The translations under genes and the position numbers were made by a program. 64,000 nt of DNA, taken from contig CAWACH010000006.1 of assembly GCA_963780625.1 (NCBI GenBank), positions 472,798 through 536,797 on the forward strand, read 5' to 3'. The stretch comes from an uncultured Methanocellaceae archaeon (GTDB lineage Archaea; Halobacteriota; Methanocellia; Methanocellales; Methanocellaceae). Below the pieces are notes generated by a model that did not search any database, was not told where the DNA came from, and saw only the letters and a program-made list of their open reading frames with translations. Numbering within the stretch: position 1 is the stretch's first letter; each line of letters starts with the position of its first letter. Positions 35,171 to 57,805 of the stretch are shown in pieces.

Positions 35171-35788
35171 CGCTCGATTGTGCCGTGTTTGGGTTTCTTT
35201 TCCTGTTATACTGCCTTTGCGACTCACGTACACTCCTCGGTTTCAGCTACCCGAAGTTCCCCTAAAACTCACAAAGACACTATTCTTTTTTAGAGACGGT
35301 CCACAAAAAATCTAAAACACCCCTGTTCCACGGCTAATAGAAATAAACCACAAAGACACGGGTAAAATTAGAAGACACCAATGCACGGATTAAAACAATT
35401 AAAGAGTGCCCCCAAAACGCTAAGTACCACCAAACTAAAACAATTAAAAGGACTATAGCGCCAACCGGCAAGCTATCTGATTAGAAAGAGACGGTCTACG
35501 CTCGACTAATCAATAGTTATTTTTCTGTTTCGTTTTTGTGGTACTTCTTGTTTTAGGGACACTTTTTCCTGTCTTAGTCCGCGCATTGGTGTATTCACTT
35601 CTTACCAGTGTTTTAGTGGTTTAATTCTATTGGCCGTGGAGCAGGGTGTTTTAGTTATTTAGTGGACCGTCTCTAAAAAAAGTAGTGTTCTAGTGACCTT
35701 TGGGACACTTAGTGTTAGCTGAAACCGAGGAGTGTACGTAAGTCACAAACCAGGGGTAAACGGTAAATAAGCAAGAAATAATTGAGCG
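35171..35788. repeat. Element D: long inverted repeat (core arms about 35216-35442 and 35526-35749), no ORF
   Basis: TTTGCGACTCACGTACACTCCTCGGTTTCAGCTA mirrored by TAGCTGAAACCGAGGAGTGTACGTAAGTCACAAA; TTTTTTAGAGACGGTCCAC mirrored by GTGGACCGTCTCTAAAAAA. Confidence 0.9.
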
Positions 35789-39914: not shown

Positions 39915-41183
39915 TTACTTGCTTTTTTTAACTTTGTGTTGTTTTAGAGCTGCCTTTGGCGGTAACCCAAGGGCGTTGATCAGCTCGATAAGTTCTGTGA
40001 ATGCGCCCATCTCGAAGTCTATGATCTCGTTCTTTGTCATGCTGATGGTCATTTCGCCGTCTGCCGTGAGCCTGTCGGGCCCTCTGCGGACGAACCTATC
40101 GACGCCGTCTTTTGACAGTACTTCCTCGATCTCTTTGTCATGTACCAGCGCCCTGCCCGGTATGATGACGGTATCTTTTACTTCTTTTAGGTCAATGTCG
40201 ATGATGTCGCTGATGGTGATCAGACATGCAATGTCTTTTTTAGCCGGTATAACGTTCACGCTGCTGCCGAGCTTCGTGAATATTTCCTGTATTAAGGGCG
40301 CCGCCACGGAGCCGGAGATGAGCGTTGCATCCATCTTGACCTTTGGTAACTTTAATAGCTTCTTTGGCTCGTTGCGTATGGCGAATGGCGAGCCCAGCTT
40401 TGGATCTCCGAGAGGCGTGCCCGTGACCCTGAATGAATATCGTGAGGCGATCTCTTTTACGATATTCTCGAATTCCTTGACGGTATGAGCCGTTACGCCC
40501 TTGATCAGCGGAGCATTATTCAGTATCAAGCCTTGTTCTTCGGTGTTGGCGAAGCGCATCAGGATAACGCCCTTTGCGCCCCATTTTTCCAGCAGGTCGC
40601 AGGTCTTGATGAGGTCTTCTCCGTCGTTGACGCCCGGTATTAAGACAGACGCAGCATAGACGTCGCAGGATTTACAGAACCTCTTCAGGGCTTCCAGCGA
40701 TTCTTCCGGATGCTTGTCGTTCATGTATTCCTTGCGCAGCTTCGGGTTTGCGGAGAAAACTGTAAAAGTAACTTCCTTGACGCCGTTCTCGATGTAAAAG
40801 TCCGCATCGTCGGCGCTGTCAAAGCCCTTGCCGCTGGTATACCCGAGATGAATGGGAAGGCCATACTGGCTGAGGAATGCGACGAGCTCTTTCAATTCAG
40901 GATAACAGCTTACGTCGCCGCCGCCGCTGATGGTGATCTTCTCGGCGTTCCTATTAAACATCATGGCGCTCATCACGTCTGAGGTGACCATCATGAGAGG
41001 CTTGAAGCCGGGATACTGCTCCCTGATGCCGCGGGTGCAATAGTCACAGCCTTTCTGGAACGGCATGCAGTGCTTACAGCCAAAGGCCGGGACTACTTTT
41101 ACCAGCTTGAAATAACAGTACTTGCAAAAGCCCCTGCAGTCTTTACCGGGGCTGCCGCCCACGTCAGCGAGAATCTCGGCCAT
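39915..41183 (-). CDS. mmp10: Mmp10 radical SAM methyl-coenzyme M reductase arginine methyltransferase
   Basis: [23 protein letters not shown]...[35 protein letters not shown]. Confidence 0.93.
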
Positions 41184-41334
41184 AGTGATATCAACCTAAG
41201 GAGTTACGCGCTTAAGAAATAAAGCTTTTCAGATGATACTCATAACAAATCTAAATATTGGATCACAAAAAAAATTTATGGTAAAAGTAAGTGATATTGT
41301 TTTATATAATACGTTATAATATATAATTGATAAC

Positions 41335-42948: not shown

Positions 42949-43104
42949 TTATATTAGGTTAAGGCTGTCGTCTTTCTGGAACGGCATGCAGTGCTTGCAG
43001 CCAAAGGCCGGGACTACTTTTACCAGCTTGAAATAACAGTACTTGCAAAAGCCACTGCAGTCCTTACCGGGACTGCCGCCTACGTCCGCTAAGATCTCGA
43101 CCAT
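42949..43104 (-). pseudogene. mmp10: Truncated duplicate of the mmp10 5' end (44 homologous codons)
   Basis: [44 protein letters not shown] then DDSLNLI*; direct repeat of 41051-41183. Confidence 0.9.
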
Positions 43105-43202
43105 GGATACACCGCTCTAAGGAAAGTTCATTCTCAATGAATAAAGCTTTTCAGATACTATGAGAAGAATAAGAGATATAGATTTCTAAAATGATAAAAA
43201 AG

Positions 43203-46297: not shown

Positions 46298-47332
46298 ATG
46301 AATGTGACCATCTCGACGCCTTCGCGCCTGCATTTCGGGTTGATAGACTTCAACGGTAATCTCGGCCGTATCGACGGCGGTTCCGGCGTAGCCATCTCTA
46401 ACCCGCGCAACGTGCTTTCGATCAAGAGCGGGAAACAGTTCCAGGTCAACGGCTCTGACCCGAAGACTATTTTGAACATCGCTAAGGGCATATGCGATAA
46501 GTTAGGCAAGCCCCTGCCCGATGTCGAGGTCACTGTCGAAGAAGAGATCCCGGCCCACGCCGGCTTCGGCTCCAAGACGCAAATGAGCCTGGCCATGGCG
46601 TATGCCATTTGCGATGAGTATGATATTCCATATAATGGCGTAGAAGGTCTGGCCCGGCTGGTAGGCCGCGGCGGCACCTCGGGCATCGGAGTCCGCGCTT
46701 TCGAGAAAGGCGGCTTCATATTAGATTGCGGTCACAGCTTTGGCGAAGGCAAGGAAAAAACCTCCTGCTTACCATCATCCGCCTCAAAGGCAATGCCGGC
46801 CCCAGAAATTTTAAGGTGCGACATACCGGAAGACTGGCGCTTCGTGCTGGTAACACCCCTGGATGACGAAGGTTCCCACGGGCAGTCCGAAGTCGACATT
46901 TTCAAGTCATCATTCCCGCTGGACGAAGTCGAGATCGGCAGAGTCTGCCGTGTAATATTAATGCAAATGGTACCGGGTATTTTAGAGAGGAATATCGAGA
47001 CCTTCGGCGGCGCCATCAACAAGATCCAGGAGATCGGCTTCAAGAATATAGAAGTGAAGCTGAAGTCGCCTCTGGTGCCGAATATGCTGACCATCATGAA
47101 CAATGCCGGCTCCTACGGAAGCGGCATGAGCTCATTCGGGCCGACTGTGTATGGCCTGACCAACAGCAACAAAAAAGCCTATGAGATAAAGGACGTCATC
47201 TCCGGGTATCTAGACGATATGAGCATCAAACATCAATGCTGGATCGCTGAACCTAATAATCATGGTGTTTCGGTAAAGTCCACGTTCGGGGAAAGAAAGC
47301 GAGTTTCGCCTATATCAATAATGAGCGAATAA
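46298..47332 (+). CDS. mptG: Beta-ribofuranosylaminobenzene 5'-phosphate (beta-RFAP) synthase, GHMP family
   Basis: TPSRLHFGLID, HAGFGSKTQ, GRGGTSGIGV, GMSSFGPT. Confidence 0.9.
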   Translation: MNVTISTPSRLHFGLIDFNGNLGRIDGGSGVAISNPRNVLSIKSGKQFQVNGSDPKTILNIAKGICDKLGKPLPDVEVTVEEEIPAHAGFGSKTQMSLAMAYAICDEYDIPYNGVEGLARLVGRGGTSGIGVRAFEKGGFILDCGHSFGEGKEKTSCLPSSASKAMPAPEILRCDIPEDWRFVLVTPLDDEGSHGQSEVDIFKSSFPLDEVEIGRVCRVILMQMVPGILERNIETFGGAINKIQEIGFKNIEVKLKSPLVPNMLTIMNNAGSYGSGMSSFGPTVYGLTNSNKKAYEIKDVISGYLDDMSIKHQCWIAEPNNHGVSVKSTFGERKRVSPISIMSE

Positions 47333-47348
47333 ATTCGATTTTTATAAT

Positions 47349-48453
47349 CGCACAAAACCTACTAAGCATCAGTTAGTTCGTTAGTGTTTGTGTGATGATC
47401 ATTTATTCTTGCTAGCATCTTTCGCTGGATTGTTCGGTTTCACAACACGAAGACATGAAATTCTTTTTTAGATTTACTAACACTAAAACATGAAAACACC
47501 ATGGCACAGTTAAATCATGAAAGCATGAAGGACTCTATTAAATCGAATTAAGCCACCAAAGCACGGTTATTAAGACACTAACGAACGACGTAAGCCACGA
47601 AGTGCCACAAAAACGAGACAATTAGAGTATTATTGCTCTAACTTTCCATTCGAAAACTAAAAATATGTTAACTTAGTTACATATTATTTGCATTATTATG
47701 TAATTAATGTTTGAGTGTGGTACCATTGGATGATAAGCCTAAAAAGAAGTATGAAACGATACCTTCCCAAGTTGAGGATGCCGCCAGGTATGCTGTCGAT
47801 TCGGCATATAATATTCACATGAAATTGGGACAAGGGCTGCTTGAAAGGAATTATGAAAAATTCATGGAGATCGAGTTAAAGAAAAGAGGATGCACTGTAA
47901 AAAGACAGGTAAAAGTACCCATAAAGTATGACGGTATCCTGTATGAAGATGAGTGCTACATCCTGGATATGCTCGTCGATGACTGCTTAATCCTCGAATT
48001 AAAAGCCGTTGAAAACATAAACCCAATACACAGGTACCAACTATTAACGTATCTAAATCATACCGGGCTGAGGCTTGGATTACTAATAAATTTCAATACG
48101 GCAAACATAGGAGAGGAGATCTCTAGAGTGATCAACTAACGATAACTTGTAGAAATATGCTAAGTTGGCCTAACGTTCCCTTTTTGTCTCGTTTTTGTGG
48201 CACTTCGTGCCTTACGTCGTTCGTTTGTGTCTTAATAGCCGTGTCCTGGTGGCTTATGTCGATTAATAGGGGCTTTCATGTTTTCATGATTTGACTGTGT
48301 CATAGTGTTTTTCATGCCTTAGTGTTCGTAAATCTAAAAAGGAATTTCATGTCTTCGTGTTGTGAAACCGAACAATCCAGCGAAAAGCGCTAGCAAGAAT
48401 AAACGACAACCACACAAACACAGAACTACTGGAGTTTAATAGGGCTTGGTGCG
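47349..48453. mobile_element. Element A: about 270 bp inverted repeats (47349-47621 and 48184-48453) enclosing a GxxExxY gene
   Basis: GCTGGATTGTTCGGTTTCACAACACGAAGACATGAAATT mirrored at about 48340-48382; GTGCCACAAAAACGAGACAA mirrored by TTGTCTCGTTTTTGTGGCAC. Mobility is inferred. Confidence 0.75.
47711..48139 (+). CDS. GxxExxY protein (PD-(D/E)XK nuclease-like)
   Basis: LGQGLLERNYE; LDMLVDDCLILELKAV; QLLTYL...GLLINF. Confidence 0.92.
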   Translation: MSVVPLDDKPKKKYETIPSQVEDAARYAVDSAYNIHMKLGQGLLERNYEKFMEIELKKRGCTVKRQVKVPIKYDGILYEDECYILDMLVDDCLILELKAVENINPIHRYQLLTYLNHTGLRLGLLINFNTANIGEEISRVIN

Positions 48454-48643: not shown

Positions 48644-50710
48644 ATGGATTACACCATACTTGCGCCGATCGCGGGCATCCTCGCCCTGGTTTTCGCCGGT
48701 TACTTCGCCTATACGGTACTCAAGGAAAACGCTGGTACCCAAAAGATGAAGGACATCTCCGGCGCCGTGCAGGAAGGCGCGATGGCGTTCTTGAACAGAC
48801 AGTATAAGACCGTAGCGATATTCGCTGTCATCATAGCAGTTATTCTCGCAGTGGCCATAGGCATATGGGTCGCAATAGGCTTCCTCGTGGGAGCTATACT
48901 GTCTGCAGCTGCCGGTTATATCGGCATGAACATTTCCGTAAGGTCCAACGTGAGGACAGCCGAAGCCGCAAAAAGCGGATTAGGCAAGGCATTATCAGTC
49001 GCCTTCAGAGGCGGCTCGGTCACGGGACTTGCGGTCGTAGGATTAGGATTGTTAAGCATCAGCGGATTCTACCTGATACTAGCGAATTTATTGACGCCTG
49101 CCGGAACGGTAGTAGACCTGAAGCCATTGATCGGCTTAGGCTTCGGCGCCAGCTTGATCAGCTTATTCGCCAGGGTCGGCGGCGGTATTTTTACCAAGGC
49201 AGCCGACGTAGGTGCTGACCTCATCGGAAAGGTCGAAGTAGGCATACCCGAGGATGACCCGAGAAACCCCGCCGTCATCGCCGATAACGTGGGCGACAAC
49301 GTGGGCGACTGTGCGGGCATGGGCGCAGACCTGTTCGAGACGTACATCATTACGGCACTCGCGGCAATGCTGTTAGCCAGCATCCCGAGCATACAGACTG
49401 CGCTGACCGGCACATTCGGCCTGACAGCGGCAGGGCTGGCGAACCTCGTCACATTCCCCCTAATATTGGGCGCACTGGGCGTTGTAGCCACCATCATAGC
49501 CATCTTCTTCGTCAGGCTCGGCGCGAACAACAAGATCATGGGAGCGTTATACAAGGGACTAATAGTCGCTACCGTTCTCTCGATCGTGTTCTTCTACATA
49601 GCCGACTACGTGCTTCTTGACGGTAACATGGGCATATTCATCGCCTCGCTCGTAGGCCTCGGCGTGATGGCCGGCATATTCCTCATCACCGAGTACTACA
49701 CGGGCACTGGCCACAGGCCGGTCAACGAGGTCGCAAAGGCGTCCATCACCGGCGCAGGCACGAACATCATCACGGGCATCGCGATGGGCCTTGAGGCCAC
49801 GGCATTACCGGTACTGGTCATTGTCGTCGGCATCTTCATAGCCTACCACTTTGCGGGCCTGTATGGTATCTCGATCGCCGCCGTTGCAATGCTCTCCGTT
49901 ACGGGCATCATCGTAGCCATCGACTCCTACGGCCCCATCACGGACAACGCAGGCGGCATTGCAGAGATGGCCGACCTGGCCCCCGAGGTCAGGAAGATCA
50001 CCGATGCGCTAGACGCAGTTGGCAACACGACCAAGGCAGTGACCAAAGGTTACGCCATAGGTTCTGCCGCGCTGGCCGCGCTGGCCTTGTACGCCGCATT
50101 CAAGGCGGACATCGTCATGCCGGCAGGCACAACGCTGAACCTGTCCATCGATAACCCGATCGTCCTCATAGGCCTGTTCATCGGCGGCGCATTGCCGTTC
50201 CTGTTCAGCGCCTTCTGTATGCTGGCAGTCGGCCGTGCGGCGTTTAACATCGTCGAAGAGGTCAGGCGCCAGTTCAAGGAGATACCGGGTATCATGGAAG
50301 GCACGGCCAAGCCGGATTACGGCAAGTGCGTGGACATCGTGACCCTCGCCGCGCTGAAGCAAATGGCATTACCTGCCGCTTTAGCAGTGCTGAGTCCGCT
50401 GGTCGTTGGATTCCTGCTGGGCCCCGCCGCATTGAGCGGTCTCCTGTTAGGCGTCATCATCACCGGCTTAATGCTGGCGATACACATGACGTCGGGTGGC
50501 GCAGCATGGGATAACGCCAAGAAGTTCATCGAGATGGGCAACTACGGCGGTAAAAAGAGCGATGCGCACAAAGCCGCAGTCGTAGGCGACACTGTCGGTG
50601 ACCCGTACAAGGACACTGCCGGACCGTCTCTGAACGCTTTGATCAAGGTCATGAACACGATCTCGTTGATCTTCATCGGCCTGATCACCACGTACTACCT
50701 CATCAGATAA
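48644..50710 (+). CDS. hppA: Membrane-bound ion-pumping pyrophosphatase, K+-independent signature
   Basis: [53 protein letters not shown]. Confidence 0.95.
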
Positions 50711-50794: not shown

Positions 50795-51418
50795 ACCATT
50801 GTAGCTAGCGGTCCCGCGTTTGTGTAGTGATCGTTTATTCTGGCTAGCGCTTTTCGCTGGATTGTTCGGTTTCACAACACGAAGACATGAAATTTCTTTT
50901 TAGATTTACTAACACTAAAACATGAAAAACACTATGGCACAGTTAAATCATGAAGTCATGAAGGACTCCATTAATCGAATTAAGCCACCAAGCTCACGGC
51001 TATTAAGACACTAACGAACGACGTAAATCACGAAGTGCCACAAAACCAAGACAATAGAGTACGGCTATAATAACGAGCGTCGTTATGCTATAATTGGATC
51101 GATATGTGAATACAATCGATGAGTCAAGAAACGGAAGCTGGCACAGCGTATACTTTTTGTCTCGTTTTTGTGGCACTTCGTGGCTTAAGTCGTTCGTTAG
51201 TGTCTTAATAGCCGTGCCTTGGTGGCTTAATTAATTTAATAGGGTCCTTCATGACTTAATGATTTAACTGTGTATCATAGTGGCCTTACTGTTTTAGTGT
51301 TCGTAAATCTAAAAAAGAATTTCATGTCTTCGTGTTATGAAACCGAGGGCCGTACGTGAGTCGCATAAAATAAAAAACGGCAAAAGCATAAACACGAAAC
51401 TGCTGGGCTACCGTGGTT
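50795..51418. mobile_element. Element B: empty copy of the element A family (core arms about 50866-51054 and 51157-51346, about 100 bp spacer)
   Basis: Arms closely match element A arms; no ORF inside. Confidence 0.75.
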
Positions 51419-57156: not shown

Positions 57157-57721
57157 GCCCAGTAGTTCCGTGTTTGTGTGGTAATCGTTTATTCTTGCTT
57201 GCGCCTTTTTCGCTGGATTGTTAGGTTTCACAACACGAAGACATGAAATTTCTTTTTTAGATTTACTAACACTAAGCCATGAAAACACTATGGCACGGTC
57301 AAATCATGAAGTCATGAAGGACTCTATTAATCGAATTAAGCCACCAAGGCACGGCTATTAAGACACGAACGAACGACGTAAATCACGAAGTACCACAAAA
57401 CCAAGACAATAGAGACGGCTATGATAACGAGCGTCGCCAGATAAAAATTTGGATCGATATATGAATACGATCGATTAGTCAAGAAACGGTAGCTGGCATA
57501 GCGTATGCTTTTTGTCTTAATTTGGTGGCACTTCGTGGCTTACGTCGTTCGTTCGTGTCTTATTAGCCGTGTCTTGGTGGCTTAATTCATTTAATGGGGT
57601 CTTCATGCTTTCATGATTTAACTGTGTATCATAGTGGCCTTACTGTTTTAGTGTTAGTAAATCTAAAAAAGAATTTCATGTCTTCGTGTTGTGAAACCGA
57701 AGGGCGTACGTGAGTCGCAAA
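57157..57721. mobile_element. Element C: empty copy of the element A family (core arms about 57224-57409 and 57512-57700)
   Basis: Arms and spacer closely match element B; begins right at the USP stop codon. Confidence 0.75.
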
Positions 57722-57805
57722 GAATGGATAGGCATAAGATGTTAATATTTTAGGCGGCTCATTACCCTTTTATACCTTCAGACACTTTTTTATAGCGGCA
57801 TTTCA

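Follow-up and report, generated by a model that had tools for sequence, protein, structure and literature searches.

In REP/REPIN-RAYT systems, a gene is flanked by its own palindromic repeats, and many non-autonomous palindromic copies are found in intergenic regions. The RAYT protein is an HUH (IS200/IS605-type) Y1 transposase-like enzyme, and the palindromes are short, with REP sequences of 20-40 nt and REPINs of tens of bases. Long inverted arms built of short sub-repeats are a feature of the eukaryotic Foldback (FB) transposons, which are mostly non-coding, with few members that contain open reading frames, and which have flanking duplications. A partnership between a small nuclease and a dispersed repeat was reported in 2025 for Ssn, whose gene is framed by inverted copies of its NTS/SRM repeats and which forms protein-repeat cognate pairs across lineages, as outlined in the abstract of that report (PMC11893778). 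The literature that we searched mentions GxxExxY proteins just in passing and contains no functional description of GxxExxY, PDDEXK_3/PF13366 or Methanocella repeats, and the family PF13366 is listed as "unknown" (PMC3424549).

Here, we describe a GxxExxY gene enclosed by long palindromic arms, referred to as element A, within a 64,000-nt window of DNA (G000:C6:472798-536797) that belongs to a 2.66-Mb Methanocellaceae assembly of 6 contigs that is about 76% complete (G000). Taken together, gene and palindrome resemble a type of mobile element that is absent from the literature searched, and for which the nearest published analogues are RAYT/REP and, to the extent covered by its abstract, Ssn/NTS (PMC11893778). 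As with Ssn, a small nuclease gene is framed by inverted copies of a dispersed repeat, which is a likeness at the level of architecture, and proteins and repeats form cognate pairs across lineages. In contrast, Ssn has a GIY-YIG fold whereas the protein of A is a PD-(D/E)XK protein (PF13366), the arms of family 1, to which A belongs, are about 250 bp long and built of many boxes, and insertion marks in the form of duplications and empty sites are present here, with none claimed for Ssn in the abstract. The gene of A resembles that of a RAYT in being flanked by its own palindromic repeats and accompanied by many intergenic gene-less copies; however, Pfam gives PF13366 only, with no HUH domain in A, and family-1 elements are about 600 bp long with ~250-bp arms. 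Family 1 is also similar to IS/MITE pairs in its terminal inverted repeats, flanking duplications, sharp-ended dispersed gene-less copies and presence/absence polymorphism, but it lacks a DDE, HUH, serine or tyrosine recombinase, no IS in the assembly shares its ends, and its elements consist almost entirely of inverted repeats. The likeness to FB transposons is one of architecture only, as these elements are eukaryotic and their proteins and sequences are unrelated.

Element A and its GxxExxY protein

Element A is located between a GHMP-kinase-fold gene (46298-47332), which we take to encode RFAP synthase, and an H+-pyrophosphatase gene (48644-50710). The initial annotation described a single GxxExxY gene between long inverted repeats and saw no transposase, and both observations were borne out: arms of ~250 bp, with ~90% complementarity between 47384-47621 and 48184-48421, enclose one PF13366 gene, which is the sole Pfam-matched open reading frame of the element (Table 1). 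The AT-rich stretch upstream of this gene, which can be aligned in the upstream arms of A and of the elements L026, L015, L027, L025 and L001, appears promoter-like, and the gene cassette that includes it stands in place of the ~95-bp loop of gene-less copies. Element A is ~10% diverged from the family-1 consensus and has an outer right arm unlike that of the gene-less copies, which indicates that A is not their direct parent.

Table 1. Positions within the window of the palindromic elements and of the parts of element A
Feature	Coordinates	Strand	Description and basis
Element A, gene-carrying member of palindromic family 1	47370..48432	+	1063 bp; both arms aligned end-to-end to family-1 consensus; inverted repeats
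Left arm of A	47370..47635	+	Holds oriented CAYNAA boxes
AT-rich stretch 5' of gene in A	47640..47710	+	Conserved among six related elements
GxxExxY / PDDEXK_3 nuclease gene	47711..48139	+	Sole long open reading frame within A; Pfam and NCBIfam matches; conserved residues; modelled fold; dN/dS
Right arm of A, mirror of left	48160..48432	-	Inverted repeats and consensus alignment
Element B, gene-less family-1 copy	50805..51406	+	Downstream of H+-pyrophosphatase gene
Element C, gene-less family-1 copy	57159..57761	+	Start 2 bp after stop codon
Element D, member of diverged third family	35195..35770		Inverted/direct repeats

The protein of A comprises 142 aa when read from a TTG start, with a 137-aa form on record, and matches both PF13366 PDDEXK_3 (E 3e-35, 121.4 bits, cut-off 22) and TIGR04256 GxxExxY (E 1e-35, 122.4 bits, cut-off 35). 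The family motif is present as G42-L-L-E45-R-N-Y48, and across 31 sequences E45 is conserved and D86, E96 and K98 vary little or not at all. The PD-(D/E)XK active site of the protein is intact, and a structure model with a pLDDT of 91.2 has the PD-(D/E)XK (restriction-endonuclease-like) fold. The best structural matches of this model are all PD-(D/E)XK proteins with modest scores, led by a restriction-endonuclease-like protein (Z 7.7) and Cas4 SSO0001 (Z 7.6); Hjc, with 85 residues aligned at an rmsd of 3.0 and Z 6.6, is tied with many other proteins of this fold. Archaeal Hjc and Cas4-type nucleases are like the protein of A in their small PD-(D/E)XK fold and weak structural matches, but unrelated PD-(D/E)XK proteins commonly reach such Z values, and no sequence relatives of the protein of A were found in the PDB.

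Comparison of the gene of A with an 85%-identical homologue from a related genome (G001) yielded a dN/dS of 0.054, and the encoded protein is under strong purifying selection. The arms of these two elements are still about 80% identical though 65% of synonymous sites differ, which indicates that the arms of gene-carrying copies are constrained as well. As a single query, the protein of A retrieved 2,584 relatives at E <= 1e-20.

Family 1 and its marks of insertion

Family 1 was found by blastn at about 39 loci in the 2.66-Mb assembly, with about 32 full-length copies (~600 bp), 3 that are truncated and 4 that contain an insert. In G000, the nuclease gene is present within family 1 at A only, and the other three inserts are two IS3-type elements and one different palindrome in a concentric position. 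Copies share sharp ends (CAGTAGT...ACTACTG), outside which conservation collapses, and the family consensus folds as a near-perfect 599-nt hairpin (-210 kcal/mol, DNA parameters). The number of blastn loci and the fold of the consensus indicate that the inverted repeats first seen at A are not due to chance. Elements B and C had been proposed as closely matching gene-less relatives with a short inter-arm gap, which blastn and alignment confirmed, with about 102 nt between the arms of each. Within the consensus left arm, CAYNAA boxes occur 11 times in the forward orientation versus 0.9 times in shuffles, often as dyads 8 bp apart that repeat about every 36 bp, and the pattern is mirrored in the right arm.

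Family-1 copies are positioned non-uniformly with respect to genes. According to rough ORF-based gene calls, a gene 3' end faces 29 of 31 copies and 8 copies start 1-3 bp past a stop codon, so that the initial description of elements beginning at or just past a stop codon holds. By the same rough calls, 14 of the 31 copies occupy convergent intergenic regions, against a background of 18%, and 2 occupy divergent ones, against a background of 25%.

Several sequences interrupt or adjoin family-1 copies. The same IS3-type element (orfA HTH_Tnp_1, orfB rve) splits two of them, at G000:C2:3245-5116 and at C2:488414-490100 (L056), with one insertion located in the left arm of its copy and the other having replaced the central part. 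Palindromes also nest in one another, as seen for a family-4-like palindrome (CACNGAG boxes) that is almost concentric within a family-1 copy (G000:C6:402604-403740; L057) and for a family-1-like element that lies between two CGCGAAG-type arms in the complete genome of a member of the same genus (G005, 1092918-1093931). We considered whether ~12 family-1 copies are nested in exact palindrome centres, but strongly palindromic flanks were found at only 2 of 32 copies (versus 0.15% of random sites); for about 10 copies, one flank or both simply start with a family-4-like end module. This module is ~40-50 bp long and ends with ...CAGTTTTTTCACCACAGAG, with examples in the flanks of G000:C4:55235-55832 and C6:742440-743041, and the terminal motif TGTGGCGTTGATGGAA that closes family 2 resembles it. 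The shared module may represent an outer terminus that these elements have in common, or a sequence into which they preferentially insert. Elsewhere in the window, a 152-nt direct repeat with 88% identity (41051-41202 and 42972-43123, 1.9 kb apart) is unrelated to the palindromic families.

The statement in the initial annotation that no clear target-site duplication is visible has to be corrected, because family 1 as a whole contains a statistical signal. In a test of this one family that allowed a boundary shift of at most 1 nt, 12 of 32 copies were flanked by direct repeats of 4 bp or longer, compared with 2.8% of permuted left/right pairs (P 3e-11), and 6 copies by repeats of 5 bp or longer, compared with 0.7% of permuted pairs. 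Given the 10-15% decay of the copies, these repeats, which are often 4-6 bp long, fit a duplication of ~5 bp at every insertion. Flanking duplication was not evident by eye among the 8 copies of family 2, and none was seen at the two G005 gene-carrying copies of the 644-bp unit described below. Many copies of the CGCGAAG family in G005 have further outer layers, and their boundaries are unreliable for a duplication test.

Orthologous sites were compared between species that are ~75-78% identical in coding DNA, which indicates that the polymorphisms are old. In the sister species G003, only a 13-bp spacer separates the two genes that flank C in G000, and the site of copy C6:742440 spans 77 bp; in G000, the C insert reaches from 2 bp past the conserved stop codon up to a conserved TATA-like stretch. 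The C site in G005 is occupied by a gene-less palindrome of the CACNGAG type. At the site of A, G003 has a 430-bp spacer without an inverted repeat, and G005 contains a different GxxExxY unit (47% protein identity, CGCGAAG boxes) that is reversed in orientation relative to A and abuts the stop codon. The orthologous G000 spacer (C2:629425-629614) lacks a gene-carrying unit that G005 has at 491123-491765. Presence/absence polymorphism at orthologous sites, which had been named earlier as a point to check, is thus observed, and the empty sites in the sister species indicate that the elements are not fixed at the same sites across related species.

Entire units with gene and arms are repeated in the G005 genome. 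A 644-bp unit (86-bp arms and gene) is present twice, 1.46 Mb apart and with 98.6% identity, and its homology extends from the left arm terminus to 15 bp beyond the right arm. Another gene-carrying unit has three copies with 90-95% identity, and the 86-bp arm occurs without a gene at 35 or more further loci. This genome also contains family-1-like gene-less copies, with no family-1-type gene among its six GxxExxY genes. The 644-bp pair has 9 differences, with 0 in the 399-bp gene, 1 in the right arm and 6 within 31 bp of the left arm (6 per 86 bp of that arm), and the three-copy unit contains a 100-bp block of high divergence. The uneven distribution of differences suggests that these copies are mosaics, which fits exchange between elements through their arms.

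Whether the arms match the ends of a known IS was likewise checked: within the assembly, the terminal 20-mers of families 1 and 2 are present only in the families themselves, and no IS shares these ends.

We also examined the fate of copies following insertion. Pairing between the arms of one copy (85.3%) is equal to that between the arms of different copies (85.4%), and compensatory double changes are not in excess (40 versus 48 +/- 6 in shuffles), which suggests that copies decay as neutral relics of a palindromic master. A maintained hairpin was rejected on the basis of this lack of within-copy covariation, and a known RNA family was rejected because positions 34000-59000 of the window have no Rfam match. 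The initial proposal of an autonomous/non-autonomous pair stands in part: its anatomy is strongly supported, with two arm families that each have their own paralog and gene-less copies; the suggested cutting or resolution of a cruciform by the nuclease is by association, and the lack of compensatory change does not support a maintained cruciform.

Arm families and their GxxExxY lineages

The only other GxxExxY gene in G000 (C3:160162-160584) is 60% identical to that of A and is likewise located between inverted arms, of ~260 bp. These arms define a second family with 7 gene-less copies and 1 gene copy, which has no blastn link to family 1. Element D, initially described as a diverged relative, is indeed one and belongs to a third family, whose 4 copies in G000 are all gene-less. 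CACNGAG boxes mark a fourth type, which comprises at least 15 gene-less copies in G000 and has gene-carrying relatives in G005.

PF13366 was detected in 13 of 14 genomes of the same taxonomic family, with 2-7 matches each, and in 0 of 26 other genomes sampled from the phylum. Enrichment of flanking inverted repeats at GxxExxY genes, a check suggested by the initial annotation, is pronounced, as inverted repeats of 48-294 bp flank 23 of 30 GxxExxY loci in related genomes but only 1 of 400 random G000 sites. Mean protein identity is 0.72 for pairs of loci with alignable flanks, some of which are syntenic loci without inverted repeats rather than arms, versus 0.46 for the remaining pairs. Six elements whose proteins are 60-85% identical have the same box layout along their arms. 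Judged from these alignments, arms and GxxExxY proteins diverge together, with each arm family having its own GxxExxY lineage.

G003 encodes two identical GxxExxY genes 6 kb apart (L003, at G003:C1:1359236-1362586, and L020), and the 258-bp right arm of L003 matches at three registers 78 bp apart, which indicates that this arm is a tandem array. In a sister genus (g3), a GxxExxY clade (L007, L010, L014, L019 and L023) has no flanking inverted repeats and occupies an apparently syntenic locus, with flanks of L019 and L023 that are 88% identical over 948 bp; these genes may be domesticated copies. In a further copy without arms (L028, G002:C3:189955-193296), the glutamate of the motif and the catalytic lysine have both been lost (EIH for ExK), and the orthologous G000 site (C5:91221-91345) has no GxxExxY copy.

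Candidate mechanism and alternative explanations

We consider it very probable that arms and gene form a mobile unit with non-autonomous copies. The full statement, in which the GxxExxY nuclease would also drive the movement of this unit, is by association and in our judgment an even call; it draws on the cognate pairing of arms and proteins, their conservation, the fact that the element encodes no other enzyme and the lack, in this assembly, of an IS with the same ends. In this mechanism, A would be the gene-carrying form of a ~600-bp foldback family, and B, C and about 35 further copies would be its gene-less derivatives. The nuclease would bind the oriented 6-7-bp boxes arrayed along both arms and would cut at the element or the target with a stagger of about 4-6 bp, which would allow the unit and its gene-less copies to be copied or moved. 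Joining would be performed by host repair enzymes; we know of no strand-transfer or ligation chemistry for a PD-(D/E)XK nuclease alone, and host functions must therefore be assumed. Arm-to-arm recombination would also shift the gene cassette between copies.

The cognate pairing with palindromic arms that have marks of insertion provides a testable role for the large family PF13366, and it explains about 1% of this genome, which corresponds to ~39 loci of ~600 bp and the further families. Should movement prove to depend on the nuclease as its enzyme, the elements would constitute a new class of transposable element with a new kind of catalytic protein. A broader and more tentative proposal, which we consider somewhat less likely than not, is that GxxExxY (PF13366) proteins could be the nucleases that mobilise an undescribed class of foldback elements widespread among bacteria and archaea, in which a PD-(D/E)XK enzyme of ~130 residues would be the sole element-encoded function and would recognise box arrays in long inverted arms, and in which the gene-less palindromes of many genomes would be non-autonomous copies.

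The GxxExxY protein could instead be a sequence-specific nuclease and the arms an assembly of its recognition boxes, such that the gene sits amid copies of its own target and the palindromes, spread by other means, serve or exploit a host process such as recombination control, DNA uptake or defence. We regard this explanation as unlikely, although the design, with inverted copies of a dispersed repeat on either side of a small nuclease gene, is that published for Ssn/NTS, as the abstract presents it (PMC11893778), purifying selection on the protein has stayed strong well beyond the burst of copies, and the sister-genus clade occupies its syntenic locus without inverted repeats. Such a partnership leaves unexplained the flanking duplications, the sharp-ended copying of the whole unit of gene and arms, and the presence of a separate paralog for each arm family, and the free decay of copies argues against a host function that depends on a hairpin. 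If this explanation were correct, the family would be a source of new sequence-specific nucleases.

It is also improbable, in our view, that a conventional transposase, whose gene falls in the missing 24% of the assembly or has since been lost, moved the palindromes in trans as ordinary MITEs, with GxxExxY as a passenger or as a selfish gene of the homing type that lodges in palindrome centres. DDE transposition typically produces duplications of 4-6 bp, and an assembly that is 76% complete may lack the transposase gene; moreover, palindrome centres accept other inserts, as in the family-1 copy with the concentric family-4-like palindrome, and the mosaic pattern of the G005 pair is as expected if arm recombination transferred the gene cassette. 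However, the terminal 20-mers of families 1 and 2 are confined in this assembly to the families themselves, and the only IS seen, the IS3-type element, interrupts copies without sharing their ends. The arms furthermore co-diverge with the protein, and a passenger would not impose a box layout that is kept across six elements with 60-85% protein identity.

Compared with the mobile unit that we favour, it is very improbable that the elements are host regulatory or structural sequences, conserved as 3'-end hairpins that act as terminators or RNA stabilisers: the strong bias toward gene 3' ends, often 1-3 bp past the stop codon, is the pattern expected of them, but arms pair no better within than between copies, compensatory changes are not in excess, orthologous sites in G003 are empty, Rfam gives no match in 34000-59000, and the position bias can arise in a compact genome if insertions at other places are selected against.
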